A stretch of 64,000 bases of DNA. Origin: Escherichia phage JM17. Each line of letters starts with the position of its first letter. Position 1 is the stretch's first letter. The position numbers and the translations under genes were made by a program. The notes below the pieces were generated by a model that was not told the DNA's origin, ran no database searches, and saw nothing but the letters and a program-made list of their open reading frames with translations. The DNA lies in the sequence record PP400779. One strand, 5' to 3'. Shown here piece after piece: positions 7,855 to 29,343 of this stretch.

Positions 7855-8217
7855 ATGTTTAACGATAGAGATTTTGCTTTAAAATTTAAAGATATAATGA
7901 ATTCTCCTAATGTTAAAGATAAAATAAAAATATCTAAAACATTGTATTGGTCTAAACCTGAAAATAGAGCAAAGGCCTCTATCGCAGCTTCGAAAAGAAA
8001 TGCAACCAAAGAATTTAAGGATAAATTCAGAAAATCTAAAGCTAGAGGTACATGGATATTTCATGAACAAAAATTAAAGGAATTGTGGATTGCTTTAGGA
8101 AAACCAAGTTATATTACATTTAGAAAACATGCAATTCAGCATGGTTTTAATGATGAATCATACCAAGGTGCTATCCGGTCTTGGACAAATTATTATGCTA
8201 ATAGGAAACCTAAATGA
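7855..8217 (+). CDS. basic protein, possibly the detached C-terminal DNA-binding part of the GIY-YIG endonuclease
   Basis: starts 4 nt after upstream stop in another frame; same AT-rich codon usage; K/R-rich. Confidence 0.35.
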   Translation: MFNDRDFALKFKDIMNSPNVKDKIKISKTLYWSKPENRAKASIAASKRNATKEFKDKFRKSKARGTWIFHEQKLKELWIALGKPSYITFRKHAIQHGFNDESYQGAIRSWTNYYANRKPK

Positions 8218-8900
8218 AACTTAGCCGTGAAACCGTAAATATTCTGAAAAACTTCGCTTCTATTAACTCTGGCATTCTGCTGAGTCAAGGTAAATTTATT
8301 ATGACTCGTGCAGTTAATGGCACCACTTATGCGGAAGCAAATATCTCTGATGAAATTGATTTTGACGTAGCACTTTATGATTTGAATAGCTTCTTAAGCA
8401 TTTTGAGTCTAGTGTCTGATGATGCTGAAATTTCAATGCACACTGATGGCAATATTAAAATTGCAGATACACGTTCCACAGTTTATTGGCCTGCCGCTGA
8501 CAAGAGCACCATTGTTTTTCCTAATAAGCCAATTCAATTCCCAGTGGCTTCTGTGATTACTGAAATTAAAGCTGAAGACCTTCAACAATTGCTTCGAGTT
8601 TCACGTGGACTTCAGATTGATACAATTGCTATTACAAATAAAGATGGTAAAATTGTTATCAATGGCTATAATAAAGTTGAAGATTCCGGACTAACTCGTC
8701 CTAAGTATTCTTTGACTCTTACTGATTATGACGGTTCTAATAACTTTAACTTCGTAATCAATATGGCTAATATGAAAATCCAGCCAGGTAACTATAAAGT
8801 AATGTTGTGGGGAGCTGGTGATAAAGTTGCAGCTAAGTTTGAAAGCTCTCAAGTAAGTTATGTTATTGCGATGGAAGCCGATTCTACTCACGACTTCTAA
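8214..8900 (+). CDS. 45: sliding clamp gp45
   Basis: 228 aa, same length as T4 gp45; synteny 45-44-62. Confidence 0.9.
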   Translation: MKLSRETVNILKNFASINSGILLSQGKFIMTRAVNGTTYAEANISDEIDFDVALYDLNSFLSILSLVSDDAEISMHTDGNIKIADTRSTVYWPAADKSTIVFPNKPIQFPVASVITEIKAEDLQQLLRVSRGLQIDTIAITNKDGKIVINGYNKVEDSGLTRPKYSLTLTDYDGSNNFNFVINMANMKIQPGNYKVMLWGAGDKVAAKFESSQVSYVIAMEADSTHDF

Positions 8901-8932
8901 GTCAAAGCTTTACGTTTATTGTGATACGATTA

Positions 8933-8950
8933 TGGAGGAGAAATCCTCCA
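8933..8950 (+). promoter_or_regulatory. stem-loop with GAAA tetraloop in 45-44 intergenic region
   Basis: tggagga-gaaa-tcctcca; no T-run; possible translational control or processing element. Confidence 0.35.
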
Positions 8951-8975
8951 GTTTAATGATAATGAGGAAAATTAC

Positions 8976-9938
8976 ATGATTACTATCAATTCCAAAGAAC
9001 ACATTCTAGAACAGAAATATCGTCCTTCTTCCATTGACGAATGTATTCTGCCTGCGTATGACCATGAAACATTCAAGTCTTTAGTATCTAAAGGAAAACT
9101 TCCTCATATTATTTTGCACTCTCCATCTCCTGGTACCGGTAAAACAACCGTAGCAAAAGCATTATGTAATGATATCAATGCCGAAATGATGTTCGTCAAC
9201 GGTTCTGATTGTAAGATTGATTTTGTGCGTGGTCCATTAACTGCATTCGCTCGTTCAGTCTCAATGGAAGGCAAGCCTAAAGTTATTGTTATTGATGAAT
9301 TTGACCGTAGTGGCCTCGCCGAATCACAACGGCACCTTCGTACATTCATGGAAGAATTCTCTAGTAACTGTTCTATTATTATTACTGCCAACAACATCGA
9401 TGGAATTATCGAACCGTTACGTAGTCGTTGTCGAGTTATCGAATTCGGACGTCCAACCGAAGAAGATAAAATCTCGATGATGAAGAAAATGATTCATCGT
9501 ATGGTTGAAATCTGTAAGAATGAAAATATCGAAATCGCGGATATGAAAGTTGTTGCAGCTCTGGTTAAAAAGAACTTCCCAGACTTTCGTCGTACAATTG
9601 GTCAATTAGACCAGTACTCGTCTAAAGGTGTTCTTGATGCGGGTATTTTGTCTATCGTAACTAATGACCGTGGCACAGTCTCTGATGTTATCGAAGCAAT
9701 GAAGAACAAAGATATCAAACAGCTTCGTGCATTAGCTCCAAAATATGCCGCTGATTATTCATGGTTCATCGATAAATTAGTTTCAGAATGTTATGACCAA
9801 GTTGCACCTGGTAAAAGTATTATTTCGCTTTACGAAATTGCAGGTGAAAATAATAAGTTTCATGGACTAGCTAGTAATATTGAATTACATGTTATGTATA
9901 TGCTTCTTCAACTGACTTGTGAATTGACTTGGAAATAA
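8976..9938 (+). CDS. 44: clamp-loader large subunit gp44 (AAA+)
   Basis: 320 aa; Walker [15 protein letters not shown] Walker B, SRC motif. Confidence 0.9.
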
Positions 9939-9939
9939 T

Positions 9940-10503
9940 ATGAACTTATTTGATGATGACGTCCAGCTTAACGAGCACCAAATTGCATGGAAGTCTAACG
10001 ACGCTGATGCGATTCAAAAATGTGCTGACATGTTTAAAGAAAAACCTGAGAATGAATTCTTTAAAATCATTAATGCTATTAATGAAAAGAAATCTATGTC
10101 AATTGCTCAGGTCGACTACTCAAAATTTATGGTTGAGAACTCATTATCCCAGTTCCCAGAATGTATGCCAGCCGTTTACATGATGAACTTAGTCGGTTCT
10201 GAATTAAGTGATGAAGCGCACTTCAACTATATGATGGCGGCAATTCCACGTGGTCGTCGATTCTCTAAATGGGCTAAACTAGTCGAAGACACTTCAGAGT
10301 TACTAGTTATCAAACTGTTGATGAAACATTACACAATCAACATGAATGATGCTACCGAGTATAAGCGGCTCCTTGAAAAAAATAACAAGTTGCCAATAGT
10401 CCTTAAAGAACTGAAGGCCATGGTCACTGATGAGTTTCTCAAAGAAGTTACAAAAAATGTGAAAGAACAAAAACAATTTAAAAAATTAGCATTGGAATGG
10501 TAA
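9940..10503 (+). CDS. 62: clamp-loader small subunit gp62
   Basis: 187 aa as in T4; starts 2 nt after gene 44. Confidence 0.8.
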
Positions 10504-10505
10504 AA

Positions 10506-10874
10506 ATGATCGAAATTAAATTGAAGAACCCCGAAGATTTTCTGAAAGTCAAAGAGACTCTGACCCGTATGGGCATCGCTAATAACAAGGATAAAGTTCT
10601 TTATCAGTCCTGTCATATCCTCCAAAAGCAAGGTAAATATTACATCGTCCACTTTAAAGAAATGCTGCGTATGGACGGACGTCAGGTTGATATTGATGGT
10701 GAAGACTATCAGCGACGTGATTCGATTGCTCAGTTGCTTGAAGACTGGGGCTTGATTGTTATTGAAGACTCTGCTCGTGAAGATCTGTTTGGCCTGACTA
10801 ATAACTTCCGTGTTATCTCTTTTAAACAGAAAGATGACTGGACTTTGAAAGCAAAATATACAATTGGTAATTAA
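10506..10874 (+). CDS. regA: translational repressor RegA
   Basis: 122 aa from ATG 10506 (MIEIKLKNPEDFLKVKETLTRMGIANNKDKVLYQSCHILQK...) nearly identical to remembered T4 RegA. Confidence 0.85.
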   Translation: MIEIKLKNPEDFLKVKETLTRMGIANNKDKVLYQSCHILQKQGKYYIVHFKEMLRMDGRQVDIDGEDYQRRDSIAQLLEDWGLIVIEDSAREDLFGLTNNFRVISFKQKDDWTLKAKYTIGN

Positions 10875-10877
10875 AGC

Positions 10878-10897
10878 AATGGGACTTCGGTCCCATT
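10878..10897 (+). promoter_or_regulatory. UUCG-tetraloop hairpin between regA and gene 43
   Basis: aatgggac-ttcg-gtcccatt, no T-run; terminator or gene 43 translational-operator-like element. Confidence 0.4.
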
Positions 10898-10955
10898 TGG
10901 AGTATAATAAGTTCATCAACAAACAAAAGACAATAACTCGTCTAAAGGAAATTAA

Positions 10956-13667
10956 ATGAAAGAATTTTACTTAACGGTTGAACAGATTGGTGATTCAATT
11001 TTTGAACGTTACATCGATTCTAATGGCCGTGAACGTACTCGTGAAGTAGAATATAAACCATCACTGTTTGCTCATTGTCCAGAAAGTCAGGCTACGAAAT
11101 ATTTCGATATCTACGGTAAGCCGTGTACTCGTAAGTTGTTCGCTAATATGCGTGATGCCTCCCAATGGATTAAACGCATGGAAGATATCGGACTTGAAGC
11201 ACTTGGCATGGACGATTTCAAATTGGCGTATTTGTCTGACACTTATAACTATGAAATCAAATACGACCATACAAAAATTCGTGTGGCTAACTTCGACATC
11301 GAAGTAACATCTCCGGATGGGTTCCCTGAGCCATCACAAGCAAAACATCCGATTGATGCTATCACCCATTATGACTCAATTGACGACAGGTTCTACGTAT
11401 TTGATCTATTGAATTCTCCATATGGTAATGTAGAAGAATGGTCTATTGAAATCGCTGCTAAGCTTCAAGAACAAGGCGGTGATGAAGTTCCATCTGAAAT
11501 TATCGATAAAATCATTTATATGCCGTTCGATAACGAAAAAGAATTGTTGATGGAATATCTCAACTTCTGGCAACAGAAAACTCCTGTCATTTTGACTGGA
11601 TGGAACGTTGAGTCATTCGATATTCCATATGTGTATAACCGAATCAAGAATATTTTTGGCGAATCTACTGCGAAACGTTTATCACCACATCGTAAAACTC
11701 GTGTTAAAGTTATCGAAAACATGTATGGTTCTCGTGAAATCATTACATTGTTCGGTATCTCTGTTCTTGATTACATTGACCTTTACAAAAAATTCTCTTT
11801 TACCAATCAACCGTCGTATTCTCTGGATTACATTTCAGAATTTGAATTGAACGTTGGTAAACTGAAATATGATGGCCCTATTTCTAAGCTTCGTGAAAGC
11901 AATCACCAACGATATATTTCTTATAACATTATCGACGTGTATCGTGTATTGCAAATTGATGCTAAGCGTCAGTTCATCAACTTGAGCTTGGACATGGGTT
12001 ATTATGCTAAGATACAGATTCAATCTGTGTTTAGCCCAATTAAAACATGGGATGCTATTATTTTTAATAGCCTTAAAGAGCAGAACAAGGTGATTCCACA
12101 AGGTCGTTCTCACCCGGTTCAACCTTATCCCGGCGCTTTTGTTAAGGAACCTATTCCAAATCGATACAAATATGTAATGAGTTTCGACCTTACATCTCTG
12201 TATCCAAGTATTATTCGCCAAGTGAATATTAGCCCGGAAACAATAGCAGGAACGTTTAAAGTAGCTCCATTGCATGATTATATTAACGCAATCGCTGAAC
12301 GTCCTTCAGATGTGTACAGTTGCTCTCCTAACGGCATGATGTATTATAAAGACCGTGATGGTGTAGTTCCAACTGAAATCACTAAGGTCTTTAATCAACG
12401 TAAAGAACATAAAGGTTACATGCTTGCAGCTCAACGTAATGGTGAAATAATTAAAGAGGCATTGCATAATCCTAATCTTTCTGTTGACGAACCATTAGAT
12501 GTTGATTATCGTTTCGACTTCAGTGATGAGATTAAAGAAAAGATTAAAAAGTTGTCTGCTAAATCTCTTAATGAAATGTTGTTTAGAGCTCAACGTACTG
12601 AAGTTGCAGGTATGACCGCACAAATTAACCGTAAATTGCTCATCAACTCACTTTATGGTGCACTTGGAAACGTTTGGTTCCGTTATTATGATTTGCGTAA
12701 TGCTACTGCAATCACAACATTCGGGCAAATGGCTTTACAGTGGATTGAACGTAAAGTTAATGAATATCTGAATGAAGTTTGTGGTACAGAAGGTGAAGCT
12801 TTCGTTCTTTATGGTGATACGGACTCTATTTACGTATCTGCTGATAAAATTATCGATAAGGTTGGTGAATCTAAATTCCGTGATACTAACCATTGGGTAG
12901 ACTTCTTAGATAAGTTTGCACGTGAACGTATGGAACCTGCTATTGATAGAGGTTTCCGTGAAATGTGCGAATACATGAACAATAAACAACACTTAATGTT
13001 CATGGACCGAGAAGCTATCGCTGGGCCTCCGCTTGGTTCTAAAGGTATTGGCGGATTTTGGACTGGTAAGAAACGTTATGCATTAAACGTGTGGGATATG
13101 GAAGGTACTCGTTACGCTGAGCCTAAACTCAAAATCATGGGTCTAGAAACTCAGAAATCTTCGACCCCTAAAGCAGTACAGAAAGCTCTTAAAGAATGTA
13201 TTCGTCGTATGCTTCAAGAAGGTGAAGAATCATTACAAGAATATTTTAAAGAGTTTGAAAAAGAATTCCGTCAATTGAATTATATTAGCATCGCGTCGGT
13301 ATCTTCTGCGAATAACATTGCTAAATATGACGTCGGTGGATTCCCTGGTCCTAAATGCCCGTTCCATATTCGTGGAATTCTGACATATAACCGAGCTATC
13401 AAAGGTAATATCGATGCACCACAAGTTGTAGAAGGTGAAAAAGTATATGTTCTGCCTTTACGTGAAGGAAACCCATTCGGTGATAAATGTATCGCATGGC
13501 CTTCTGGTACTGAAATCACAGATTTAATTAAAGACGATGTACTTCATTGGATGGACTACACTGTTCTCCTTGAGAAGACATTTATTAAACCACTTGAAGG
13601 ATTCACATCAGCAGCGAAACTCGATTATGAGAAGAAAGCATCTCTGTTCGATATGTTCGATTTTTGA
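10956..13667 (+). CDS. 43: DNA polymerase gp43 (family B), RB69-type
   Basis: 903 aa; N-terminus MKEFYLTVEQIGDSIFERYIDSNGRERTREVEYKPSLFAHCPESQ and exo/pol motifs (FDIE, YGDTDS) match remembered RB69 gp43. Confidence 0.97.
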   Translation: MKEFYLTVEQIGDSIFERYIDSNGRERTREVEYKPSLFAHCPESQATKYFDIYGKPCTRKLFANMRDASQWIKRMEDIGLEALGMDDFKLAYLSDTYNYEIKYDHTKIRVANFDIEVTSPDGFPEPSQAKHPIDAITHYDSIDDRFYVFDLLNSPYGNVEEWSIEIAAKLQEQGGDEVPSEIIDKIIYMPFDNEKELLMEYLNFWQQKTPVILTGWNVESFDIPYVYNRIKNIFGESTAKRLSPHRKTRVKVIENMYGSREIITLFGISVLDYIDLYKKFSFTNQPSYSLDYISEFELNVGKLKYDGPISKLRESNHQRYISYNIIDVYRVLQIDAKRQFINLSLDMGYYAKIQIQSVFSPIKTWDAIIFNSLKEQNKVIPQGRSHPVQPYPGAFVKEPIPNRYKYVMSFDLTSLYPSIIRQVNISPETIAGTFKVAPLHDYINAIAERPSDVYSCSPNGMMYYKDRDGVVPTEITKVFNQRKEHKGYMLAAQRNGEIIKEALHNPNLSVDEPLDVDYRFDFSDEIKEKIKKLSAKSLNEMLFRAQRTEVAGMTAQINRKLLINSLYGALGNVWFRYYDLRNATAITTFGQMALQWIERKVNEYLNEVCGTEGEAFVLYGDTDSIYVSADKIIDKVGESKFRDTNHWVDFLDKFARERMEPAIDRGFREMCEYMNNKQHLMFMDREAIAGPPLGSKGIGGFWTGKKRYALNVWDMEGTRYAEPKLKIMGLETQKSSTPKAVQKALKECIRRMLQEGEESLQEYFKEFEKEFRQLNYISIASVSSANNIAKYDVGGFPGPKCPFHIRGILTYNRAIKGNIDAPQVVEGEKVYVLPLREGNPFGDKCIAWPSGTEITDLIKDDVLHWMDYTVLLEKTFIKPLEGFTSAAKLDYEKKASLFDMFDF

Positions 13668-13707
13668 TATAATGTCATGGACGGTAAACTAATTAAATGA
13701 GAGAAAT

Positions 13708-14343
13708 ATGAAAACTACTCCTATTACTATCGCTATTGACGCAATCATAAAACAAGCTTCTTCTTTGGCCGCTATGGCCAAAGTAATTAGTCAAAACCCT
13801 GCTCGTTATAATGCTATTCTAGAAACTCTTCGACGCCCTGGACTTAGTAATTATGAAAGCCGGGTAATTATTACAGGTGTTGGTAAGAATGCTAATATCG
13901 CAACTAAAGCTTCCGAGACATTTGCTTCACTAGGTATTCCTAGCATGTATTTGAACACTGGGCATTATTCTCACGGTGATGCAGGATTCATTGCGCCTAA
14001 TGATGTGTTGATTCATATTAGTCGTTCTGGTAAGACTGAAGAAATGATAGGTGTTGCTAAACATCTTCGTATGATTCGTCCTCAGGTTAAACAGATTCTG
14101 TTACATTGTAACCCAGACATTCCACAAGAATACGAAGCTCTTTTTGATTATACGTTCTGTACTGGCATCGCGGTAGAGGTTGATGAGAATTCTCTGGCTC
14201 CGACTATGTCCACTACATTGTTGTTAGCGCTTATCGATACGTTTGCTATCAACCTTTCGTCTGAACGTGGATTTACCTCTAATGATTTCCTTAAGTTCCA
14301 TCCAGGCGGTGCACTAGGTGCCATGTTACGAGGCGAACAATGA
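13708..14343 (+). CDS. SIS-domain sugar-phosphate isomerase (KdsD/GutQ-like; candidate D-arabinose-5-phosphate isomerase)
   Basis: 211 aa; VIITGVGKN...SLGIPSMYLN...HGD...HISRSGKTEE...FLKFHPGGALGAMLRG parallels KdsD SIS core; no CBS domains. Confidence 0.75.
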   Translation: MKTTPITIAIDAIIKQASSLAAMAKVISQNPARYNAILETLRRPGLSNYESRVIITGVGKNANIATKASETFASLGIPSMYLNTGHYSHGDAGFIAPNDVLIHISRSGKTEEMIGVAKHLRMIRPQVKQILLHCNPDIPQEYEALFDYTFCTGIAVEVDENSLAPTMSTTLLLALIDTFAINLSSERGFTSNDFLKFHPGGALGAMLRGEQ

Positions 14344-14483
14344 AAGCAATAACAATAGGACTTTTACTATTGATGCTTGTCATGACTATCTACTGGAGCT
14401 TAACGGCTCCGGTAATGATTCCAACACTTGTAATTGGATGGATTATGATTGGACTACAAGCAAAGTATGAATGCTTTAACTAG
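14340..14483 (+). CDS. small hydrophobic protein (47 aa, two predicted TM segments)
   Basis: ATG overlaps upstream stop (ATGA); below ORF-track cutoff; lies where T4 has imm. Confidence 0.3.
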   Translation: MKAITIGLLLLMLVMTIYWSLTAPVMIPTLVIGWIMIGLQAKYECFN

Positions 14484-14524
14484 AATAGTGTACAATACTC
14501 CTACTTACCAATGAGGACTTTAAC

Positions 14525-16210
14525 ATGAAAAAAGCTGTTATTCTTGGTGCTGGACTGGCAACTCGTTTGTATCCAATAACGCATCATATTCCTAAGGTGC
14601 TTGTTAACTATAAACAAGATACTATTCTGAGCAATTTGTATACAATTTATTCTGACCTTGGCGCAGATGAAATTATTGTAGTAGTTCATTCAAAATTTGC
14701 TGAAACTGTTCGAGCTTATTGTGAACAAGAAGGGTTCAATGTGACTATTCGTACAGTTGATGAAGCGTATGGTTCTGCTTATGCTCTTGCTAAATTACAC
14801 AAAGATTTAGACGGCCATAATGTAATTGTTAACTGGTGTGATATTATTCCTGATTTTGGTTCATGGTCTTGGAATGTTAACGCAATCTATGTTAAGGGTG
14901 ACGAATGTCGATATAATTTCGACGGTGAAAATATCACTAACGTAGGTTCAACAGGTGGTAATGTTGTAGGAATTTATCAGTTCAAAGACTGGGAATTCTA
15001 TATGGGTTCTACTGATGAGGAAATTCATGAATACTGCAAAGGACGTGATTTCGTAGAATTCCTTTACGGCAGCGCATTCAATAAATCAGAGCTTATGAAT
15101 CTAATTGATTTAGGTGATATGCCTAAACTTGAAAAAGCTCATGAAGTTCGTGAACTTAATCGTAGTTTTAATGCAGTTGAAATTGGTGAAGAAACTGTAA
15201 CTAAATTCGCATTAACCGAACAGGGTCGAGCTCTTCAGAAAGATGAGATTTCGTGGTATCTTAAAGTGAAATCAGATTCAGTTCCTCAGTTAGTTTCTGT
15301 TAATGAAAATAACTTTGAAATGGAACGCATTAAAGGTAAGCCTGCATTTGAATATATTAAATCCAAATCAAGTCTTGCTCGTCCACAAATTGTTGATGCA
15401 ATTTTAGATGCACTGAAATTCAGCACAGACACTTATTTTGTAAGTCCTGAAACTGTTCGTCGTGATTTCACTAAAGAATTCTATACGAAAGTTATTGATC
15501 GTTGTGAAAGCATTCAACCATTGATTGATTCATTTGGTAAAATCACACATGTGAACTACACTAAGATTGGACGTCTGAAGCCAATGCTGAAACAAGCTTT
15601 AGAACACCTCATTCGTTATCATAACCGTTCTCAGGGACAGTACTCTGTTATTCACGGTGACCCGAACTTCAGTAATACTATGATTACTGATAATGGCGAA
15701 GTCAAGTTTATCGACCCTCGTGGATATTTTGGTGAAACCAAGATTTACGGGCCAAAATTGTACGATGAAGCTAAAGTGCTTTACGCTGTTTCAGGTTATG
15801 ATGAATTCAATGCTAATCCGACTTGGGGACAGTTTACTATTGATGAAACAACTTGTAATGTGACTATTAACATCAATCCATTAGTTTACAAATATGGAAA
15901 GATGAGTTCGTTTAACGAGTATCATCATTTGGCAGTGGCAATTATCTGGATTGCATTAGGTGGTTATTTCAAGAATAATCCACTTAAAGCGGTAGCCGCA
16001 TATTATAAAGGTATGGAACTTCTGACTAAGCAATTACGTAACATGGGCCGTGTACTTCAGGACGGCTCTATTAGTTATGACGTAGCAGAACCTGTAACGG
16101 CTACTCTGATTACAAAAAATCCTGGTAAATGGGTACTAACTGATAAAGAAACTGGTGTTTCCTATCGTCCAATCGGTGGCGATATCACTCATCAATGGGA
16201 ACGAATTTGA
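14525..16210 (+). CDS. bifunctional sugar-1-phosphate nucleotidyltransferase / APH-fold sugar kinase
   Basis: 561 aa; N-term AVILGAGLATRLYPIT...PKVLV (NTP-transferase G-loop); C-term VIHGDPNFSN...FIDPRG (Brenner HGDxxxxN and DxxG kinase motifs). Confidence 0.7.
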   Translation: MKKAVILGAGLATRLYPITHHIPKVLVNYKQDTILSNLYTIYSDLGADEIIVVVHSKFAETVRAYCEQEGFNVTIRTVDEAYGSAYALAKLHKDLDGHNVIVNWCDIIPDFGSWSWNVNAIYVKGDECRYNFDGENITNVGSTGGNVVGIYQFKDWEFYMGSTDEEIHEYCKGRDFVEFLYGSAFNKSELMNLIDLGDMPKLEKAHEVRELNRSFNAVEIGEETVTKFALTEQGRALQKDEISWYLKVKSDSVPQLVSVNENNFEMERIKGKPAFEYIKSKSSLARPQIVDAILDALKFSTDTYFVSPETVRRDFTKEFYTKVIDRCESIQPLIDSFGKITHVNYTKIGRLKPMLKQALEHLIRYHNRSQGQYSVIHGDPNFSNTMITDNGEVKFIDPRGYFGETKIYGPKLYDEAKVLYAVSGYDEFNANPTWGQFTIDETTCNVTININPLVYKYGKMSSFNEYHHLAVAIIWIALGGYFKNNPLKAVAAYYKGMELLTKQLRNMGRVLQDGSISYDVAEPVTATLITKNPGKWVLTDKETGVSYRPIGGDITHQWERI

Positions 16211-16956
16211 TACATTATCTCTACAAAACTACTAATCTTATAAACGGTAAAGTTTATTTAGGAATGCACTCGGCTGAAGAAGCCGAGCCTTTAGATTTAT
16301 ATAAAGGTTCTGGTAAATTATATAAAAAGGCTGAAAGGAAATATGGGAAGGAAAATTTTCTTAAAGAAATCATTTCCTACCATAGCTCAAGAGAAGAATT
16401 AAAAATAGCTGAAAAGGCTCTAATAACATTAGACATAGTTAAAGACCCAAATTATTACAATCTTAAAACTGGTGGCGAAGGTGGTTCTGACGGGTTATCC
16501 CAAAGGTCCAAGGATAAAATTTCTAAGGCAAATAAAGGACGTTTAGTTGGTGATAAAAACCCAAGATGGGGTAAAACTTTGTCAGCTGAATCTATAGCTA
16601 GGGGTAAAGAAAAGCACAGGAGGTATGGTAAACCTGCATTACATGGTCTAAAGATTAATGTAGATGGCAAATATTATGAATCCTGTCGGGAAGCGGCTAA
16701 AGATTTAGGTATATCTTCTGCCACGATTCAAAAGAGAGTAAAATCGCCTAAATATCTTAATTATCGGTATCAGGACGAAAGCAAAAATGCTCACAAGTCT
16801 CAAAAATTTGTTAAAATAAACGAAAATTACTATGAATCTCTTAGGATAGCTGAAAAGAAAACGGGTATTCCTAGAAAGCGTATAGCTGATAATATTAAAA
16901 ATTCTATTGAAGGATATTGCTATGAAACCATTACATCTTTGCGTGGACGTCGATGA
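16195..16956 (+). CDS. GIY-YIG homing endonuclease (freestanding, seg-like)
   Basis: 253 aa; HYLYKTTNLINGKVYLGMH = GIY-YIG module; AT-rich codons; overlaps both flanking genes. Confidence 0.7.
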   Translation: MGTNLIHYLYKTTNLINGKVYLGMHSAEEAEPLDLYKGSGKLYKKAERKYGKENFLKEIISYHSSREELKIAEKALITLDIVKDPNYYNLKTGGEGGSDGLSQRSKDKISKANKGRLVGDKNPRWGKTLSAESIARGKEKHRRYGKPALHGLKINVDGKYYESCREAAKDLGISSATIQKRVKSPKYLNYRYQDESKNAHKSQKFVKINENYYESLRIAEKKTGIPRKRIADNIKNSIEGYCYETITSLRGRR

Positions 16957-17296
16957 TTGTATAACAGAGTGGAATAACAATCGTGATTACGTGAACTTCA
17001 AACCAGACGTCGAAATGGTGTCTGCCATTAATGCCCTGTATGATGCAGGGCATACAATAACGCTTTACACTGCTCGAGGTATGAAGTCAGTAGGTCCTGG
17101 TCGTATAGCAATTGACATTCTCCCAAGTCTGATTCAGAACTTGGCAAACATTGGCTTGAAGTACCATAATTTGCTAACACATAAACCAGTATATGATTGG
17201 ATTATCGACGACAAAGCTATGCGTCCTGACGAATTCAAAGCTCTTATGAATAAAGGCGAATTCGAAACATTTAAATCATATAAACCGAATCTATAA
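16922..17296 (+). CDS. HAD-like phosphatase (candidate sugar-phosphate phosphatase)
   Basis: 124 aa from ATG 16922; N-terminal hhhhDxDx motif-like LCVDVDDCIT; small size typical of capless HAD. Confidence 0.45.
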   Translation: MKPLHLCVDVDDCITEWNNNRDYVNFKPDVEMVSAINALYDAGHTITLYTARGMKSVGPGRIAIDILPSLIQNLANIGLKYHNLLTHKPVYDWIIDDKAMRPDEFKALMNKGEFETFKSYKPNL

Positions 17297-17353
17297 TAAT
17301 TTAAGTAAGACCTGCAAAAACCATCGCATCAATTAACGTGAGATGCAAAAAAA

Positions 17354-18514
17354 ATGAATACTTTTAAAATTGGAACGAATTTTGATTTAGCTCTTCTTGA
17401 TAAAATCGTAGAGCTCAATAAAACTTATCCTAATAGCTTGATAAACGAAGTATACGGCTCTACAAGAGAAATGGCTTTTGTAGCAGCCAGACCTGATTTT
17501 AGGCTTCCTGACGTTGACAAAAAGATGTTAGAAGATTACGTTAAACGTTGTAACGAATTAGGTATTTGCTTTAACTATACACTCAACACGATAAATCCTG
17601 GTTCAAAAAGAGAACTAGTTGAGTGGAAGAAGAAAGCTATTCAGGATTATGTTCAGTATCTTTGGTCAATAGGCGTATGGCGTATTACTATCGCTAACCC
17701 TGTTGTTATGGAAATTGTTCGTGAAGTCAATAAAGACATTGAGATTGAAGTTTCAACAATTCTACATGTCGATGCTGTAACTCAAATCAAATACTTGCAT
17801 GACCAGTATAATATCAAAAAGGTCTGCTGTGGAATTCATAAGAACCGTTCAGTTTCTTTCCTGAAGCGTGCAGCAGAGTTTTGCAATAAGAACAATATAA
17901 TATTTGAAGTTCTTGTAAATGAGTTCTGTTCTAATGCCGGTAAAGGGTATACAACACATTGTAGCTATCGTGACTCTTGCTATATTTTCCATAGTACTGA
18001 TGTTACAGCTGATGATGCTAAATCCTTAAACGGATATCCTATGCAGCACTGTATTAAAGCTCGTGATACAGACCCATTTAACTGGTTGAGAACTCGTTTT
18101 GTTCGTCCTCAAGATTTGAAACTTTATAATGATATTGGTATCACTCAATTCAAAGTTTCAGGACGTACAGGTAGCACAGACTACATTTTGAAAGTTCTTG
18201 AAGCATACGCTTCTGAAAAGTTTGAAGGTAATTTGTTAGAACTGTGGAAGCCTTTAGAGACTATTTTCACTCTTGAAAATGAGACCGAGTTTTCACATAC
18301 GGTAAATATTGAAACCTCTTTGTTAGATGGCTTTTTAGAAAAAAGGTGGTTCAGACATCCAGATTTCGATTGTGCTAATGAGATCTGCGGGACGACGTGT
18401 ACATATTGTGAAAGATATTATAAACGTCAGTTATCTAAAAATGGGTTAGCAGAAAACTCTATATCTATTATTGATATAACTAACTCTGATGACGCTTTGA
18501 GGTACCCGGAATGA
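17354..18514 (+). CDS. peptidase-U32-family-like protein (PrtC/RlhA/UbiU-like fold), function unknown
   Basis: 386 aa; IGTNFD...VYGS...CFNYTLNT...IEIEVSTILHV...FEVLVNEFCSNAGKGYTTHCSYRDSCYIFHS resembles U32 core incl. Cys cluster; extra CxxxCxxxCxxC near C-terminus. Confidence 0.45.
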   Translation: MNTFKIGTNFDLALLDKIVELNKTYPNSLINEVYGSTREMAFVAARPDFRLPDVDKKMLEDYVKRCNELGICFNYTLNTINPGSKRELVEWKKKAIQDYVQYLWSIGVWRITIANPVVMEIVREVNKDIEIEVSTILHVDAVTQIKYLHDQYNIKKVCCGIHKNRSVSFLKRAAEFCNKNNIIFEVLVNEFCSNAGKGYTTHCSYRDSCYIFHSTDVTADDAKSLNGYPMQHCIKARDTDPFNWLRTRFVRPQDLKLYNDIGITQFKVSGRTGSTDYILKVLEAYASEKFEGNLLELWKPLETIFTLENETEFSHTVNIETSLLDGFLEKRWFRHPDFDCANEICGTTCTYCERYYKRQLSKNGLAENSISIIDITNSDDALRYPE

Positions 18515-18750
18515 TTTCTAGAAAAACTTTTAATCACCAACTTAATGAAGAGATTTTGACTACGAAACTGAACACTAACGAACAAATTCTTAAAAAGGCC
18601 CTTATGGGCCTGTTTGAAACCAAAGCGGCTAAAGTGATTAAAGGACCTGTTCAATTAGAATATTACGCTGATACATTTCTTCATAGTGTTCTTGGAAGTA
18701 TCGATGCTGAAGCTTTACGTTATATCAACATTGCCAAGAAATTCAAATAA
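18511..18750 (+). CDS. hypothetical protein (79 aa)
   Basis: ORF overlapping upstream stop; contains internal hairpin aggccc-ttat-gggcct (18597-18612). Confidence 0.3.
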   Translation: MISRKTFNHQLNEEILTTKLNTNEQILKKALMGLFETKAAKVIKGPVQLEYYADTFLHSVLGSIDAEALRYINIAKKFK

Positions 18751-18792
18751 GCTTTACGAATTGAGTATATAATAAATTGTATTGAGGTAAAC

Positions 18793-19509
18793 ATGGGAAA
18801 ACATAACACAATGAAATATATCAAAGCCGCAGATTTTCAAACCGCATTTAAAGCAGTCAATCGTGAAATTTTAGAAAACCCGGAATTCGTAACTGATTCT
18901 CGTATTGGACGTTGTAATGAAATTGGGTCTATGACAGTAGTTGTTGACACTCCATCATCATTCAAAATGACTGACCCACGTATTAACCGCATCTCTTATG
19001 AATATGCCGAAGACTTCTGGAAGTTTATGATTTCTGGTGGTACCAACGCAGAAGAAGCGTTTAAGGCATATCCTAATGTCGCTAAATTTATTTCTAAACC
19101 AAAATCAGATGTTTTGCCGGCGAACTTCAATACTTTCTATGGTCCTCGCATTGCGGCCCAATTACCAGCTCTTCTAAAAGAACTTAAAGAGAAGCCTAAC
19201 TCTCGAAGAGTTGTGTTCCAAATTCTAGAAAGTTCTGATCAGGCTTTGCTTGATTCGGATGAAACGCTTGAATATCCATGTACTGACTCAGTGACTTATT
19301 ATATTCGTGATGGTAAGCTTTATACCCACTGTCATATGCGTTCTCAGAACTGTGCTGTTGTTATGCAGTTGGATTTTTATCTCCAAGGAAAATTACTTCA
19401 TTATATCGCTAACGAATGCGGTGTAGAAGTTGGTGATTATACTCATACCATGGTAAGTGCCCATGTGTTTGAACGTGATTTTGATTATGTTAAAGGATTC
19501 CTTGACTAA
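18793..19509 (+). CDS. 42: dCMP hydroxymethylase gp42 (thymidylate-synthase fold)
   Basis: 238 aa; TS-family core (NSRRVVFQI, PCTDSVTYYIRDGKLY..MRSQN....LD...GV.VGDY) with Asp at the base-specificity position; synteny 43..42..uvsX. Confidence 0.75.
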   Translation: MGKHNTMKYIKAADFQTAFKAVNREILENPEFVTDSRIGRCNEIGSMTVVVDTPSSFKMTDPRINRISYEYAEDFWKFMISGGTNAEEAFKAYPNVAKFISKPKSDVLPANFNTFYGPRIAAQLPALLKELKEKPNSRRVVFQILESSDQALLDSDETLEYPCTDSVTYYIRDGKLYTHCHMRSQNCAVVMQLDFYLQGKLLHYIANECGVEVGDYTHTMVSAHVFERDFDYVKGFLD

Positions 19510-20408
19510 TGGCTATTTTCCGCGTACCAATCTTGAGTATGCGGTCTTATGAAACTGGACAGTATGCTATCCTTAAGGATGGCAACTTCCAACTTCATTT
19601 GCACCGTGCTAATCCGGGTGATGTGATTACATATCCACGTAATGCATCTGATATTAAAGAATGCGAACGTCTTTTCCCAGAATTTAAGTTTGTTCCATTA
19701 TGGTATAAAGATAACGCTTATAACACTCGTAAATATTTCTGGTCTGAAAATGAATTTGTGGTTGATTCATTAATTGCTTATTATGATTGCGATTTTCTAA
19801 TCACAGATATAACTGGATATGACGGCGCTTTTGATGTAGAATTCAATTTCAATATCACTGCAGACCCTAATAAACCACGTTTTTATATTGACGAATTCTT
19901 AAAAACCGACATGTTGTCGGTTAATCGTTCAATCCAAACAACTGTGTTGAATGAACGTCAAAAAGAAGTGCTGGTTAACGCAGGTGCAGATGGTAATAAG
20001 ATTATCGTAACGCAGAAAGTTATACGTCCTTCCATCATGCAGCGTCTTGTAGGTGATTTGGCTCCTATTTATCTAGATGGTATTTTTCATCCATTTCGAA
20101 TTAGTGACCCGTGCTATCGTTTTGAACAAGTGGTTGAATGTGCAATTCAATTAGGTCAACCGCTTTATATAACCGATCCAAATAATAGCTTTGACAGAAA
20201 TAAGTATCCTGAAGAAGCGTTGATTCGAATTTTTAAACCAACTAAAACTGAGTACTATCAAATTCTTAAAGGACGTCCGAAGATTCAATATTTCGAAAAT
20301 CCTGAAGAAGTATTTCATCCAGGTCTTGGTGAGTTCATCTACTTTAATGCTTTAATTTCTTCACCGTATAATATACCTAAATATGAAGATGTCGTAATCG
20401 AGGAATAA
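19509..20408 (+). CDS. hypothetical protein in the T4 beta-gt slot (candidate DNA-modification transferase)
   Basis: 299 aa; start overlaps gene 42 stop (TAATG); not recognisable as T4 beta-glucosyltransferase. Confidence 0.4.
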   Translation: MAIFRVPILSMRSYETGQYAILKDGNFQLHLHRANPGDVITYPRNASDIKECERLFPEFKFVPLWYKDNAYNTRKYFWSENEFVVDSLIAYYDCDFLITDITGYDGAFDVEFNFNITADPNKPRFYIDEFLKTDMLSVNRSIQTTVLNERQKEVLVNAGADGNKIIVTQKVIRPSIMQRLVGDLAPIYLDGIFHPFRISDPCYRFEQVVECAIQLGQPLYITDPNNSFDRNKYPEEALIRIFKPTKTEYYQILKGRPKIQYFENPEEVFHPGLGEFIYFNALISSPYNIPKYEDVVIEE

Positions 20409-20409
20409 A

Positions 20410-20958
20410 ATGGCTAAAATTATTTTAGTAGATGGCCCGGATAATGCTGGTAAAACAACTTTCATTAATGACATAATGGAAATTAGTGAAAGATATGTAA
20501 AAATTGATTTCCCTAAACGAACAGTTGATGGACGTTTCGATGTTAAGTCTCGAAATGAAGTTGGCTGTTTTGAAACGATGTTGAATTATTTAGACCCTAC
20601 TAAGATTTATCTGTTAGACCGTGGATATATTAGTAACTGGGTTTACGGACGTATTCGACAAGATGCGGACTCGGTTCTTGACGTTTATGAACAGGATTAT
20701 ATTCGTCTTTGCCAAAACCATGATGTGTTCACAATTATTTTAACACGTAACGAAATGACTGAAAGTTTTGAAGATGACCTTATTACTTTGTCTTCATTAG
20801 GTTTTAATACAGTCATTTCACATTTTGAAGAGTTTGCAATTCATAACAAAATCCAAACGTATCAATTACTTAATCATGATGGTGCTAACAAAGTTATAGG
20901 ATTTAATGCAAGCGAACGTAATGATTTGATTACAGAAATCATCAAATGGGCTCGTTAA
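20410..20958 (+). CDS. P-loop kinase, thymidylate-kinase-like
   Basis: 182 aa; Walker A VDGPDNAGKTT and DRGYISNWVYG (DR-Y/F motif of dNMP kinases). Confidence 0.55.
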   Translation: MAKIILVDGPDNAGKTTFINDIMEISERYVKIDFPKRTVDGRFDVKSRNEVGCFETMLNYLDPTKIYLLDRGYISNWVYGRIRQDADSVLDVYEQDYIRLCQNHDVFTIILTRNEMTESFEDDLITLSSLGFNTVISHFEEFAIHNKIQTYQLLNHDGANKVIGFNASERNDLITEIIKWAR

Positions 20959-20978
20959 GAGCCATTTAAAGTTTTAAA

Positions 20979-21003
20979 TGCTGTATAACCCTTAGTATAT
21001 AAT
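20979..21003 (+). promoter_or_regulatory. middle-type promoter candidate upstream of uvsX
   Basis: tgctgta (MotA-box-like, one mismatch), 12-nt spacer, tataat 20998-21003. Confidence 0.3.
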
Positions 21004-21056
21004 CATTTTATCTTTTAAACATGAGTAAAATATAATGATGCCTATGGAAAAATACA

Positions 21057-22229
21057 ATGTCTGATTTAAAATCTCGTCTGATTAAAGCTTCTACTTCTAA
21101 AATGACTGCAGACTTGACTAAGTCTAAGCTGTTTAATAATCGTGATGAAGTCCCTACTCGTATTCCGATGTTGAATATTGCACTAGGTGGTGCTCTGAAT
21201 GCAGGATTGCAATCAGGCTTGACTATTTTTGCTGCACCTTCTAAACATTTTAAAACATTGTTTGGACTAACTATGGTCGCAGCGTATATGAAGAAATATA
21301 AAGATGCAATCTGTTTGTTTTATGACTCAGAATTCGGTGCTTCAGAATCTTACTTCCGTTCGATGGGTGTTGATTTAGACCGTGTAGTTCATACTCCGAT
21401 TCAATCTGTCGAACAACTTAAAGTCGATATGACTAATCAGCTTGACGCTATTGAACGCGGTGATAAAGTTATTATCTTTATCGATTCAATCGGTAATACT
21501 GCATCTAAGAAAGAAACCGAAGATGCATTGAACGAGAAAGTTGTAGGTGATATGTCTCGTGCTAAGGCACTTAAATCTCTTTTCCGTATTGTGACTCCTT
21601 ATCTGACTATTAAAGATATTCCATGTGTTGCAATCAACCATACCGCAATGGAAATTGGCGGATTGTACCCTAAAGAGATTATGGGCGGCGGTACAGGTAT
21701 TCTTTATTCTGCTAACACTGTATTCTTTATCTCTAAACGTCAGGTTAAAGAAGGTACAGAATTGACCGGTTATGACTTCACGTTGAAAGCAGAAAAATCT
21801 CGCACAGTTAAAGAGAAATCTACTTTCCCGATCACGGTTAATTTTGATGGCGGTATTGACCCATTCAGTGGCTTGTTAGAAATGGCAACTGAAATTGGTT
21901 TTGTAGTTAAGCCTAAAGCCGGTTGGTATGCTCGCGAATTCCTTGACGAAGAAACAGGTGAAATGATTCGTGAAGAAAAATCATGGCGTGCTAAAGCTAC
22001 TGATTGTGTAGAATTCTGGGGGCCGTTGTTTAAACATAAGCCTTTCCGAGATGCAATTGAAACTAAATATAAACTAGGTGCTATCTCTTCTATTAAAGAA
22101 GTTGATGACGCTGTTAACGACCTTATTAATTGCAAAGCAACAACTAAAGTTCCGGTTAAAACTTCTGATGCTCCGTCTGCAGCAGATATAGAAAACGACC
22201 TTGACGAAATGGAAGATTTCGATGAATAA
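21057..22229 (+). CDS. uvsX: recombinase UvsX (RecA-like)
   Basis: 390 aa; MSDLKSRLIKASTSKMTADL..., Walker A GPSKHFKT; close to remembered T4 UvsX. Confidence 0.9.
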   Translation: MSDLKSRLIKASTSKMTADLTKSKLFNNRDEVPTRIPMLNIALGGALNAGLQSGLTIFAAPSKHFKTLFGLTMVAAYMKKYKDAICLFYDSEFGASESYFRSMGVDLDRVVHTPIQSVEQLKVDMTNQLDAIERGDKVIIFIDSIGNTASKKETEDALNEKVVGDMSRAKALKSLFRIVTPYLTIKDIPCVAINHTAMEIGGLYPKEIMGGGTGILYSANTVFFISKRQVKEGTELTGYDFTLKAEKSRTVKEKSTFPITVNFDGGIDPFSGLLEMATEIGFVVKPKAGWYAREFLDEETGEMIREEKSWRAKATDCVEFWGPLFKHKPFRDAIETKYKLGAISSIKEVDDAVNDLINCKATTKVPVKTSDAPSAADIENDLDEMEDFDE

Positions 22230-28732: not shown

Positions 28733-28821
28733 AATATCTCCTTAGTTACCTTATTATTTATTACGCTTTATAAAATTAATGTTAGAATTAACTCTCTTAT
28801 ACTGAATTGAAAGGAAAAATA

Positions 28822-29343
28822 ATGGCACACTTTAACGAATGTTCACAACTTATTTCTGGTGTTGATAAAGCAGAAGAAGCTTATTTTAATGCTCTGATTC
28901 ACGAAGATAAAGACCCACTGCAGGTAATGCTTGATATGCAGAAATCTTTACAGGTTCGTCTGGCAAATGACAAGCCTGAACATAACAAACATCCTGATGA
29001 ATTGGCTACTGCTGGTGATGTTGTTGATTGGCTGCGTAATCAGAAAGATTATATTGATGATGAATTTCGTGAACTGCTGACTTCACTTGGCGGTATGAGC
29101 AATGGTGAAAAAGCTGCCAGCAGTGTATGGAAGCCGTGGAAGGCACAACACGCTGAATATCGAAATCGTCGTATCGATGAACTGTCTCCTGAAGACCAGC
29201 TTGAAATTAAATTTGAAATGATTGATATTCTGCATTTCGTTCTAAATATGTTCCAAGGTCTAGGACTTTCTGCTGAAGAAATCTTCAAACTGTATTATCT
29301 GAAAAACCAACACAACTTTGAACGTCAGGATAATGGTTACTGA
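28822..29343 (+). CDS. 56: dCTP pyrophosphatase gp56 (MazG-like)
   Basis: 173 aa from ATG 28822 (MAHFNECSQLISGVDKAEEAY...); all-helical MazG-like composition; position 61..56..soc. Confidence 0.7.
   Translation: MAHFNECSQLISGVDKAEEAYFNALIHEDKDPLQVMLDMQKSLQVRLANDKPEHNKHPDELATAGDVVDWLRNQKDYIDDEFRELLTSLGGMSNGEKAASSVWKPWKAQHAEYRNRRIDELSPEDQLEIKFEMIDILHFVLNMFQGLGLSAEEIFKLYYLKNQHNFERQDNGY

Follow-up and report, generated by a model that had tools for sequence, protein, structure and literature searches.

Arabinose was found on the DNA of phage RB69 by Thomas et al. in 2018, where it was reported as arabinosyl-hydroxymethylcytosine (ara-hmC), and the products of ORF055c and ORF53_52c were proposed as enzymes for uridine diphosphate (UDP)-arabinose, with ORF003c as the transferase (PMC6024577). 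Nuclear magnetic resonance (NMR) and mass spectrometry (MS) have since identified the RB69 modification as mono- and di-arabosylated 5-hydroxycytosine in which the sugar is ether-linked (Lee et al. 2026, PMC13326640), and this corrects a widely repeated label. We analysed a related locus in Escherichia phage JM17 (sequence record PP400779), a stretch of 64,000 nucleotides which is referred to below as the window. Positions 13708-18514 of the window encode a sugar isomerase, a fused nucleotidyltransferase/kinase, a small phosphatase, and a U32-family protein. From comparison with the described systems, this segment is very probably the sugar-donor half of a cluster for DNA hypermodification with arabinosyl-5-hydroxycytosine (ara-5hoC), in which arabinose-5-phosphate would be carried through the 1,5-bisphosphate to UDP-arabinofuranose. 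The sugar-nucleotide module as such is already published (Thomas 2018; He 2026 via Lee 2026; Mahler 2025). The U32 protein is a different matter, and here we lean, on comparative grounds, toward a prephenate-dependent, O2-independent C5 hydroxylase that would give the phage an anaerobic second route to 5-hydroxycytosine (5hoC). Taken as a whole, the explanation that joins the sugar-donor module to this proposal for U32 is one we consider probable.

The steps leading to the sugar donor come from phage HY126, in the account of He et al. that is relayed in PMC13326640. There the AfhE kinase is reported to convert arabinose-5-phosphate into the 1,5-bisphosphate, the HAD enzyme AfhF to take off the 5-phosphate, and the nucleotidyltransferase (pyrophosphorylase) domain of AfhE to yield UDP-arabinofuranose. 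Experimental tests have covered AfhE and AfhF for HY126, and the ThyA-like enzyme for RB69, HY126, and the Acinetobacter phage DLP3. In RB69 this ThyA homologue is gp48, which makes 5-hydroxy-deoxycytidine monophosphate (5hodCMP), binds flavin, and takes up oxygen from 18O2 (PMC13326640). The overall logic is shared with the glucosyl-hydroxymethylcytosine (hmC) pathway of T4 (gp56, gp42, gp1, and the alpha- and beta-glucosyltransferases), which occupies the same genome neighbourhood as the genes in the window: deoxycytidine triphosphate (dCTP) is destroyed, a homologue of thymidylate synthase modifies deoxycytidine monophosphate (dCMP) at C5, and the modified nucleotide is phosphorylated and polymerised into DNA, which is then glycosylated. 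However, T4 installs a CH2OH group from methylene-tetrahydrofolate, whereas phages of the window type install an OH group from O2 through flavin. T4 also uses host UDP-glucose and has no sugar module, while the sugar of the window type is arabinofuranose; because the host has no nucleoside diphosphate (NDP)-arabinose, the phage must make its own donor.

The open reading frame (ORF) listing over positions 9000-22000 of the window places the cluster in an unbroken row of plus-strand genes 3' of an RB69-type DNA polymerase (10956-13667), and every window feature named in this text lies on that strand. Its genes correspond one-to-one and in the same order to RB69p045-p055, and their proteins are 98-100% identical to those of RB69 and its relatives. 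The window belongs to the Mosigvirus group and is approximately 98% identical to RB69 relatives. At the DNA level, 152 phage records match at least 80% of a 5.2-kb stretch of the region at 95-99% identity, all of them Mosigvirus-type phages of Escherichia and Shigella, and because so many records share the gene arrangement at this identity it is not due to chance. The kinship with RB69 suggested in the initial annotation is borne out by DNA identity and by synteny. The functional cluster runs past 18514 to 20958, taking in a 79-aa ORF, the ThyA-like gene, a glycosyltransferase, and a nucleotide kinase, before UvsX begins at 21057. Compared with the ara-5hoC clusters of RB69, HY126, and DLP3, the window has the same genes, order, and proposed chemistry. 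It differs in that a homing endonuclease separates its AfhE-like gene from its AfhF-like gene and in that the N-terminus of the phosphatase is remodelled. Unlike the window, DLP3 and other Acinetobacter phages have neither the U32 gene nor the 79-aa ORF.

The first gene of the segment encodes a 211-aa equivalent of RB69 gp55 (13708-14343), for which a role as arabinose-5-phosphate isomerase has been proposed (PMC13326640). It matches Pfam SIS (4.8e-10), phrog_5670 (1.6e-116), and, over the SIS half only, the NCBIfam models KpsF/GutQ (5.2e-32) and KdsD (2.1e-30). The alignment with KpsF covers model positions 2-153 of 268, and the protein stops after the SIS domain. The translation carries GVGK and FHPGGALG motifs, in which we take the lysine and the HPGG histidine to have the catalytic roles of their counterparts in E. 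coli KdsD. Judged by its sequence, the protein is a SIS-only relative and not a full member of the KdsD/GutQ/KpsF family, and it probably works like KdsD. The fused nucleotidyltransferase/kinase (14525-16210, 561 aa) is the equivalent of RB69 gp52:53 and HY126 AfhE. Its N-terminus matches NTP_transferase (8.5e-10, residues 3-99), contains an LGAGLATRL...PK motif, and matches PDB 1jyk (2e-5), while its C-terminus gives weak kinase-fold matches (residues 308-409) and contains an HGDPNFSN catalytic loop. The protein is 99.6% identical to the RB69 ORF052c and ORF053c pair taken as one protein. In the RB69 record NC_004928.1 (24597-25497, 28094-29780) both this fusion (p052/p053) and the glycosyltransferase (p046/p047) are split, and the splits have been attributed to sequencing errors (PMC6024577, PMC13326640); the window counterparts are single intact ORFs of 561 and 299 aa. 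The small HAD phosphatase (16922-17296, 124 aa) is the equivalent of RB69 gp51 and HY126 AfhF. Its ORF opens at 16907, and the start taken here is the ATG at 16922, as in relatives (NRG-P0074 annotation). It has a DVDD motif and matches phrog_1238 (9.5e-42) and, below threshold, the EcbF/BcbF capsule phosphatase model TIGR01689 (2.3e-13). Together, these enzymes would supply UDP-arabinofuranose in four steps. The isomerase would convert host ribulose-5-phosphate to D-arabinose-5-phosphate, the C-terminal kinase domain of the fusion would phosphorylate this at C1 to give arabinofuranose-1,5-bisphosphate, the phosphatase would remove the 5-phosphate to leave arabinofuranose-1-phosphate, and the N-terminal nucleotidyltransferase domain would then form UDP-arabinofuranose.

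The acceptor side of the system lies mostly downstream. The ThyA-like protein (18793-19509, 238 aa, RB69 gp48) is identical to PDB 9iqc/9ir2 at 233 of 238 positions. It reads RSQN and QLD where Staphylococcus aureus thymidylate synthase has RSAD and PFN, and it has Asn at the position of D169 and Asp at that of N177 in E. coli ThyA (D169N, N177D), a pattern that is the signature of 5hodCMP synthases (PMC13326640). The gene therefore encodes a flavin- and O2-dependent dCMP 5-hydroxylase (5hodCMP synthase) and not a hydroxymethylase. It is followed by a 299-aa glycosyltransferase (19509-20408) that matches phrog_3891 (1.1e-155) and RB69p046+047, is annotated as a glycosyltransferase in NRG-P0074, and is the equivalent of RB69 gp46:47, the putative first DNA arabinosyltransferase (PMC13326640 Table 1). 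Next comes a P-loop, thymidylate-kinase-like nucleotide kinase (20410-20958, 182 aa; phrog_761 3.6e-45, with a weak dTMP kinase match), whose counterpart RB69 gp45 is listed in the same table. Two further components lie elsewhere in the window. A dCTPase-like NTP pyrophosphohydrolase (28807-29343; Pfam dUTPase_2 1.2e-6, phrog_173 1.8e-45) is of the gp56/RB69p028 type that removes canonical dCTP (PMC13326640 Table 1). A second putative DNA arabinosyltransferase (40426-41526), flanked by topoisomerase gene 39 and by rIIA, shares 98.6% identity with RB69ORF003c, which has been proposed for this role (PMC6024577, PMC13326640), and has 42% identical homologues in Acinetobacter phages. In the proposed scheme, the ThyA-like enzyme would use flavin and O2 to hydroxylate dCMP at C5. 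Once the product had been phosphorylated and built into DNA, the two putative transferases would add arabinose to the 5-hydroxyl.

The U32 protein (17354-18514, 386 aa, RB69 gp50) is assigned to its family by Pfam Peptidase_U32 (7.3e-11, 42.2 bits against a cut-off of 22.4). Its sole NCBIfam match is a weak one to UbiU (8.9e-4), and a sequence search against the PDB gave no match. An AlphaFold2 model built from a 36-sequence alignment reached a predicted local distance difference test (pLDDT) score of 91.2 and a predicted template modelling score (pTM) of 0.90, and the PDB entry that it matches best is Mk0906, also a U32 protein (5d88; E 1.5e-7, template modelling (TM) score 0.73 on target). 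When aligned with UbiU, UbiV, RlhA, and TrhP of E. coli, the phage protein shares one glutamate (E185) and one cysteine (C192). Ten cysteines are invariant among subfamily members at 46-85% identity, and seven of them (C192, C203, C233, C340, C345, C349, and C352) are invariant down to 24% identity, along with several Arg, Lys, Asn, and Tyr residues. Four of the seven make up the C-terminal motif C340-X4-C345-X3-C349-X2-C352 (18371-18409), which reads CANEICGTTCTYC. The invariant residues, as read from the alignment, fit one or two iron-sulfur (Fe-S) clusters and anionic substrates, not a peptidase. The U32 protein is also the most conserved protein of the cluster: across T4-like genera it is 83-89% identical to the window copy, compared with 74-83% for the ThyA-like protein, 61-89% for the phosphatase, 66-75% for the isomerase, 42-73% for the fusion protein, 51-72% for the glycosyltransferase, and 38-73% for the kinase. 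The last three cysteines of the C-terminal motif are spaced CX3CX(Tyr)C, as in the 4Fe-4S site of radical-SAM proteins, despite the U32 TIM-barrel fold.

Characterised members of the family provide precedent for hydroxylation. RlhA is needed for 5-hydroxycytidine 2501 in 23S rRNA and depends on prephenate synthesis and Fe-S biogenesis (PMC5727448). TrhP provides the prephenate-dependent route to 5-hydroxyuridine (ho5U) at position 34 of tRNA, while TrhO provides the O2-dependent route (PMC6599085). The phage protein shares with RlhA and TrhP the domain, the fold, and, as proposed, C5 hydroxylation of a pyrimidine and dependence on prephenate; the pairing of TrhP with TrhO, an O2-independent and an O2-dependent enzyme for one product, follows the same logic as that proposed for the phage. 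However, RlhA (653 aa) and TrhP (453 aa) act on RNA, whereas the proposed substrate of the phage enzyme is a deoxynucleotide or DNA, and at 386 aa it has neither the CX6C half of the canonical cysteine motif nor their C-terminal RNA-associated domains and bears invariant cysteines of its own. A second parallel is found in UbiU and UbiV, which carry out O2-independent hydroxylation of ubiquinone precursors with prephenate as oxygen donor and are counterparts of the flavin- and O2-dependent UbiI, UbiH, and UbiF (PMC10990095). The phage protein likewise belongs to the U32 family, would depend on an Fe-S cluster, and can be likened to an anaerobic counterpart of a flavin/O2 hydroxylase. UbiU and UbiV differ in forming a heterodimer that works with UbiT on a lipid, where the phage has a single U32 gene beside either the 79-aa ORF or a chorismate mutase. 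A looser analogy is offered by the ribonucleotide reductases of T4-type phages, which encode the aerobic NrdAB and the anaerobic NrdDG; this pair is a precedent for O2-dependent and O2-independent enzymes at one DNA-precursor step, although the chemistry is different.

By this precedent, the U32 protein, as an Fe-S and prephenate-dependent enzyme, would make 5hodCMP, or 5hoC in DNA, without oxygen, and would run in parallel with the O2-dependent ThyA-like enzyme when the host grows anoxically. We favour such a hydroxylase somewhat over other roles because U32 proteins have precedent at the pyrimidine C5 position and the gene sits beside the O2-dependent enzyme, because it is repeatedly linked, in architecturally independent ways, to prephenate-making enzymes, because it is present in otherwise complete modules where no ThyA-like enzyme was found, and because it is restricted to phages of hosts able to grow without oxygen. 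Phages of this kind would need an anoxic route to 5hoC because dCTP is removed and the known hydroxylase draws its oxygen from O2.

The link to prephenate is seen most directly in the gene that follows U32. Enterobacter phage Entb_45 has, next after U32, a 79-aa gene for a type II chorismate mutase (Pfam CM_2 2.4e-10, which exceeds the cut-off), and a chorismate mutase gene lies between the U32 and ThyA-like genes in 61 cultured T4-like phage records, with hosts among Klebsiella, Serratia, Proteus, Yersinia, Enterobacter, Edwardsiella, Erwinia, Pectobacterium, Providencia, Morganella, Kosakonia, Shewanella, and E. coli (phage EcS1). A profile of the phage chorismate mutases matches PDB 1ybz (2e-19) and 1ecm (5e-7), and residues R8, R25, K36, S71, and Q75 are invariant; we take these to match the catalytic Arg, Arg, Lys, Ser, and Gln of the E. 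coli chorismate mutase. In the window, this slot is held by the 79-aa ORF (18511-18750, RB69ORF049c, phrog_8601), whose start overlaps the U32 stop. The possibility that this ORF is itself a diverged chorismate mutase was rejected: BLASTP, Pfam, and a PDB profile search gave no match, and hhalign gave a probability of 0.4%. Moreover, a gene of the ORF049 type and a chorismate mutase stand in tandem in Yersinia phage TG1 and Serratia phage 92A1, so the two are different families. ORF049 is kept in Mosigvirus, Yersinia, and Pectobacterium phages and in Serratia 92A1, with invariant residues N8, H9, Y51, Y52, D54, H58, E67, and R70; its AlphaFold2 model is a low-confidence helical hairpin (pLDDT 67.6). 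Several Mosigviruses carry truncated versions of 47-58 aa.

The distribution of the U32 gene separates it from the sugar pathway. Homologues occur in 221 phage records, all with Enterobacterales or Shewanella hosts, and among cultured phages they are seen only inside ara-5hoC clusters. The fusion protein is found in 376 records, of which 57 are from Acinetobacter phages lacking U32. Acinetobacter phage AM101 and the E. coli Dhakavirus VR5, for example, encode the isomerase or fusion, phosphatase, ThyA-like, glycosyltransferase, and kinase genes without U32. Since these Acinetobacter and Dhakavirus phages have the same sugar genes, U32 is not part of the sugar pathway; the initial annotation had given it no role. 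The route from arabinose-5-phosphate to UDP-arabinofuranose also requires no redox step.

Metagenomic sequences extend the picture well beyond cultured phages, with U32 homologues of 350-370 aa forming 454 clusters at E values up to 1e-30. We analysed 32 distant viral loci in which the U32 protein is 40-55% identical to that of the window, many of them on contigs of 120-295 kb. A homologue of the fusion protein lies nearby in 16 of the 32, nine of which also have the SIS gene; a glycosyltransferase of the gp46:47 type is present in 14, often overlapping the U32 start, and a thymidylate-kinase-like gene in eight. A chorismate mutase domain adjoins U32 in 11 of these loci in three architectures: as a standalone gene downstream (L046, L048, L051, L052, L055, and L057), or fused to 3-deoxy-D-arabino-heptulosonate-7-phosphate (DAHP) synthase either upstream (L040, L041, L043, and L044) or downstream (L054). 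Coordinates of the fusion genes are L040:6411-7430, L043:6321-7373, L044:6332-7384, and L054:9076-10194. These fusions are 43-49% identical to bifunctional enzymes of Bacteroidota, and in one further locus (L029) the DAHP synthase lacks a mutase domain. We know of no discussion of such phage-borne shikimate-pathway fusions beside U32. In L040 the order is SIS, fusion protein, kinase, DAHP synthase/chorismate mutase, HAD, and U32, while L032 has a deoxynucleoside triphosphate (dNTP) pyrophosphatase, kinase, glycosyltransferase, U32, second glycosyltransferase, and DNA polymerase III alpha. Other U32 homologues adjoin genes for dCMP deaminase, thymidylate kinase, uracil-DNA glycosylase (UDG), and DnaE on a 466-kb contig. 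A hidden Markov model (HMM) of the ThyA-like protein found no hydroxylase-type ThyA homologue within 8 kb in any of 35 distant loci; 34 were blank, and Pfam assigns the single weak match, in L031 (6e-3), to canonical thymidylate synthase.

On balance, the case tilts slightly in favour of U32 founding a virus-borne, Fe-S and prephenate-dependent subfamily that makes 5-hydroxypyrimidine deoxynucleotides, or hydroxylates DNA, without O2. In such a subfamily, the enterobacterial T4-like phages would have both the ThyA-like and the U32 routes and phages of the strict aerobe Acinetobacter the ThyA-like route only. Many uncultivated phages would have the U32 route only, with their own chorismate mutase or DAHP synthase/chorismate mutase as the supply of oxygen donor.

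A number of observations weigh against the interpretation given above. On the sugar side, the activities are known from near-identical HY126 proteins and not from these exact ones, and PMC13326640 gives two step orders, with free arabinose in Table 1 and the 1,5-bisphosphate in the text. The isomerase falls below the family cut-offs (111.5 against 203.7 bits for KpsF, 106 against 505 for KdsD) because the tandem CBS pair is missing, and the HAD assignment comes from sub-threshold profiles and from structural matches reported by others. For U32, the canonical CX6CX15CX3/4C (4Fe-4S) motif is not preserved: only C192 remains, as its third cysteine, the CX6C segment is deleted, and the fourth cysteine is a glycine. 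Fe-S binding is nonetheless plausible through another motif because a different set of cysteines is invariant. Direct in vitro hydroxylase activity has been reconstituted for no U32 protein (PMC10990095). In PMC13326640, gp50 appears only in Table 1, as a "sugar or heterocycle reductase", and the text is silent on it. Our full-text search found no paper tying U32, prephenate, or chorismate mutase to phage 5-hydroxycytosine, although He 2026 and Mahler 2025 lie outside that search and may address the gene. The Thanatos paper, whose phage has the U32 homologue TH1_065, states no hypothesis for the origin of the hydroxyl group. All Mosigviruses are without a phage chorismate mutase, and tblastn found none elsewhere in the 64-kb window; prephenate in this phage would therefore come from the host PheA/TyrA. 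In the Klebsiella Marfavirus-type L016 (IMG/VR, 8001-9918), the ThyA-like gene comes immediately after U32, there is no chorismate mutase or ORF049-type gene, and the kinase is relocated upstream of U32, so a small partner gene is not universal. E. coli Dhakaviruses run the same pathway without U32. The closest cellular homologues of the DAHP synthase/chorismate mutase proteins are from Bacteroidota, which are not all anaerobes, and for the hosts of the distant phages they point no further than to Bacteroidota-like organisms. Finally, the absence of a ThyA-like gene in the distant phages applies to 8 kb on each side of U32.

Several other explanations of the locus can be set against these data. 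The initial annotation had the four genes make NDP-arabinose through free arabinose, as a donor for hmC produced by an adjacent gene 42 dCMP hydroxymethylase. The gene families fit such a scheme, Thomas et al. proposed these genes in reporting ara-hmC (PMC6024577), and Table 1 of PMC13326640 still has the free-arabinose order, but we regard it as quite unlikely. The hmC part is largely refuted by the NMR and MS evidence for an ether link to 5-hydroxycytosine (PMC13326640) and by the neighbouring gene, which is not gene 42 but encodes the flavin/O2 enzyme near-identical to PDB 9iqc with the D169N signature. The free-arabinose order is an older proposal, and in HY126 the enzymes are reported, in the account relayed by PMC13326640, to pass from arabinose-5-phosphate through the 1,5-bisphosphate and the 1-phosphate to UDP-arabinofuranose. 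What the initial annotation saw in the sugar genes otherwise stands: Pfam, NCBIfam, and PHROG profile searches agree with the families given to all four proteins, and the literature (PMC6024577, PMC13326640) supports the idea that DNA glycosylation draws on an NDP-arabinose donor from the isomerase, kinase/nucleotidyltransferase, and phosphatase. Least probable is that the module is an auxiliary metabolic cassette for host surface sugars such as 3-deoxy-D-manno-octulosonic acid (Kdo), capsule, or lipopolysaccharide, with U32 as a peptidase or collagenase. Such a role is suggested by the names in the databases ("arabinose 5-phosphate isomerase KpsF", "capsule biosynthesis phosphatase", "peptidase", and "collagenase-like protease"), yet the genes are in tight synteny with a base-modifying enzyme, DNA glycosyltransferases, a nucleotide kinase, and replication genes, and arabinose has been measured on RB69 DNA itself (PMC6024577, PMC13326640), a chemistry that already contradicts this explanation. 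In relatives, the cluster has no gene annotated as Kdo-8-P synthase or CMP-Kdo synthetase, and peptidase function is not established for the characterised U32 members (PMC5727448).

Other explanations keep the DNA modification but give U32 a different part in it or none at all. Alternatively to a hydroxylase, U32 may be some other redox enzyme of the sugar or base pathway, for example one that supplies reduced flavin to the ThyA-like hydroxylase or modifies the pentose. The conserved cysteines suggest electron transfer, the flavin hydroxylase requires a reductant, the gene is placed between the sugar genes and the base gene, and the reductase label in Table 1 of PMC13326640 is in the same spirit. 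We consider this role unlikely, however, as the sugar route offers it no redox step, the Acinetobacter and Dhakavirus phages manage the same pathway without U32, the repeated presence of chorismate mutase or DAHP synthase next to U32 speaks for prephenate and not for flavin, and distant phages have U32 but no ThyA-like enzyme within 8 kb. It is also conceivable that U32 hydroxylates RNA, giving ho5U in tRNA or 5-hydroxycytidine in rRNA and thereby tuning translation, and that its location in the cluster is incidental. T4-like phages carry tRNA genes of their own, and the sole characterised pyrimidine-directed U32 proteins act on RNA (PMC5727448, PMC6599085). Against this, the U32 genes of cultured phages are confined to ara-5hoC clusters, those of uncultivated phages stand beside genes for dNTPase, nucleotide kinase, dCMP deaminase, DNA glycosyltransferase, and DNA polymerase, and the phage proteins have none of the C-terminal RNA-associated domains of RlhA and TrhP. 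An RNA substrate thus strikes us as improbable, somewhat more so than the free-arabinose scheme.

If U32 is indeed an anaerobic C5 hydroxylase, several consequences follow. The only proven route to 5hoC depends on molecular oxygen, whereas these phages have gut bacteria as hosts and break down canonical dCTP. The enzyme would be the first of the U32 family to act on DNA precursors and the first case of a virus drawing on prephenate as oxygen donor, and it would account for the presence of chorismate mutase and DAHP synthase genes in phages. It would also provide a compact, highly conserved, single-gene system for the in vitro reconstitution of U32 hydroxylation. Lastly, the gene would mark hidden uncultivated phages that are likely to have glycosylated 5-hydroxypyrimidine DNA, which bears on sequencing, on restriction and CRISPR evasion, and on phage therapy.

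The homing endonuclease (16195-16956, 253 aa) is a free-standing enzyme of the GIY-YIG/NUMOD type. It matches TIGR01453 (63 bits against a cut-off of 56.05) and I-TevI_DNA-bd (3.6e-8, 33.6 bits against a cut-off of 27), contains NUMOD1/3 motifs, and has a weak match to SegE_GIY-YIG (18.6 bits). Its occurrence is sporadic, in three of approximately 155 close relatives and not in RB69, and the region is covered to 100% by just three records, those that share the endonuclease. The fusion gene of RB69 has a stop codon that overlaps the start of the phosphatase gene (TAATG); the endonuclease occupies this junction in the window, beginning in the last codons of the fusion gene and finishing inside the phosphatase ORF (16907-16960 region). 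The N-terminus of the phosphatase reads MKPLHLCVDVDD in the window and MHHVENMLNLCFDVDD in RB69, and this rewriting may be the footprint of sequence replacement associated with the endonuclease. The endonuclease is a selfish insertion between two pathway genes and stands outside the pathway.

Base composition is uniform, with a G+C fraction of 0.35-0.40 throughout the module and its flanks, and this composition lends no support to a recent foreign origin of the module. A promoter and terminator scan of 13500-21100 gave 23 promoter-like sites compared with 29.8 in shuffled sequence, and nothing rose above chance. Among the more remote relatives, one contig (ENA LEMO22-1 scaffold_150; L007:8001-14360) has U32 with NT5C, a nicotinamide mononucleotide (NMN) transporter, and a deoxynucleoside kinase, and also a radical SAM/SPASM protein, a second, faint U32, and a nucleoside deoxyribosyltransferase. 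It could be a cellular or prophage-borne pathway for modified nucleosides in an anaerobic Firmicute; the same contig encodes a dockerin-bearing GH43 protein.

A final feature concerns the description of the segment as four genes interrupted only by an endonuclease. All of those genes are present on the plus strand where the initial annotation had placed them, but a further small ORF (14340-14483, 47 aa) lies between the isomerase and the fusion gene. This equivalent of RB69ORF054c is very hydrophobic, and it matches phrog_3610 (6.8e-27), with no match in a Pfam scan. A small ORF is found at the same place in Yersinia phage TG1, and the RB69 record describes its own copy as "similar to T4 42-imm intercistronic region".

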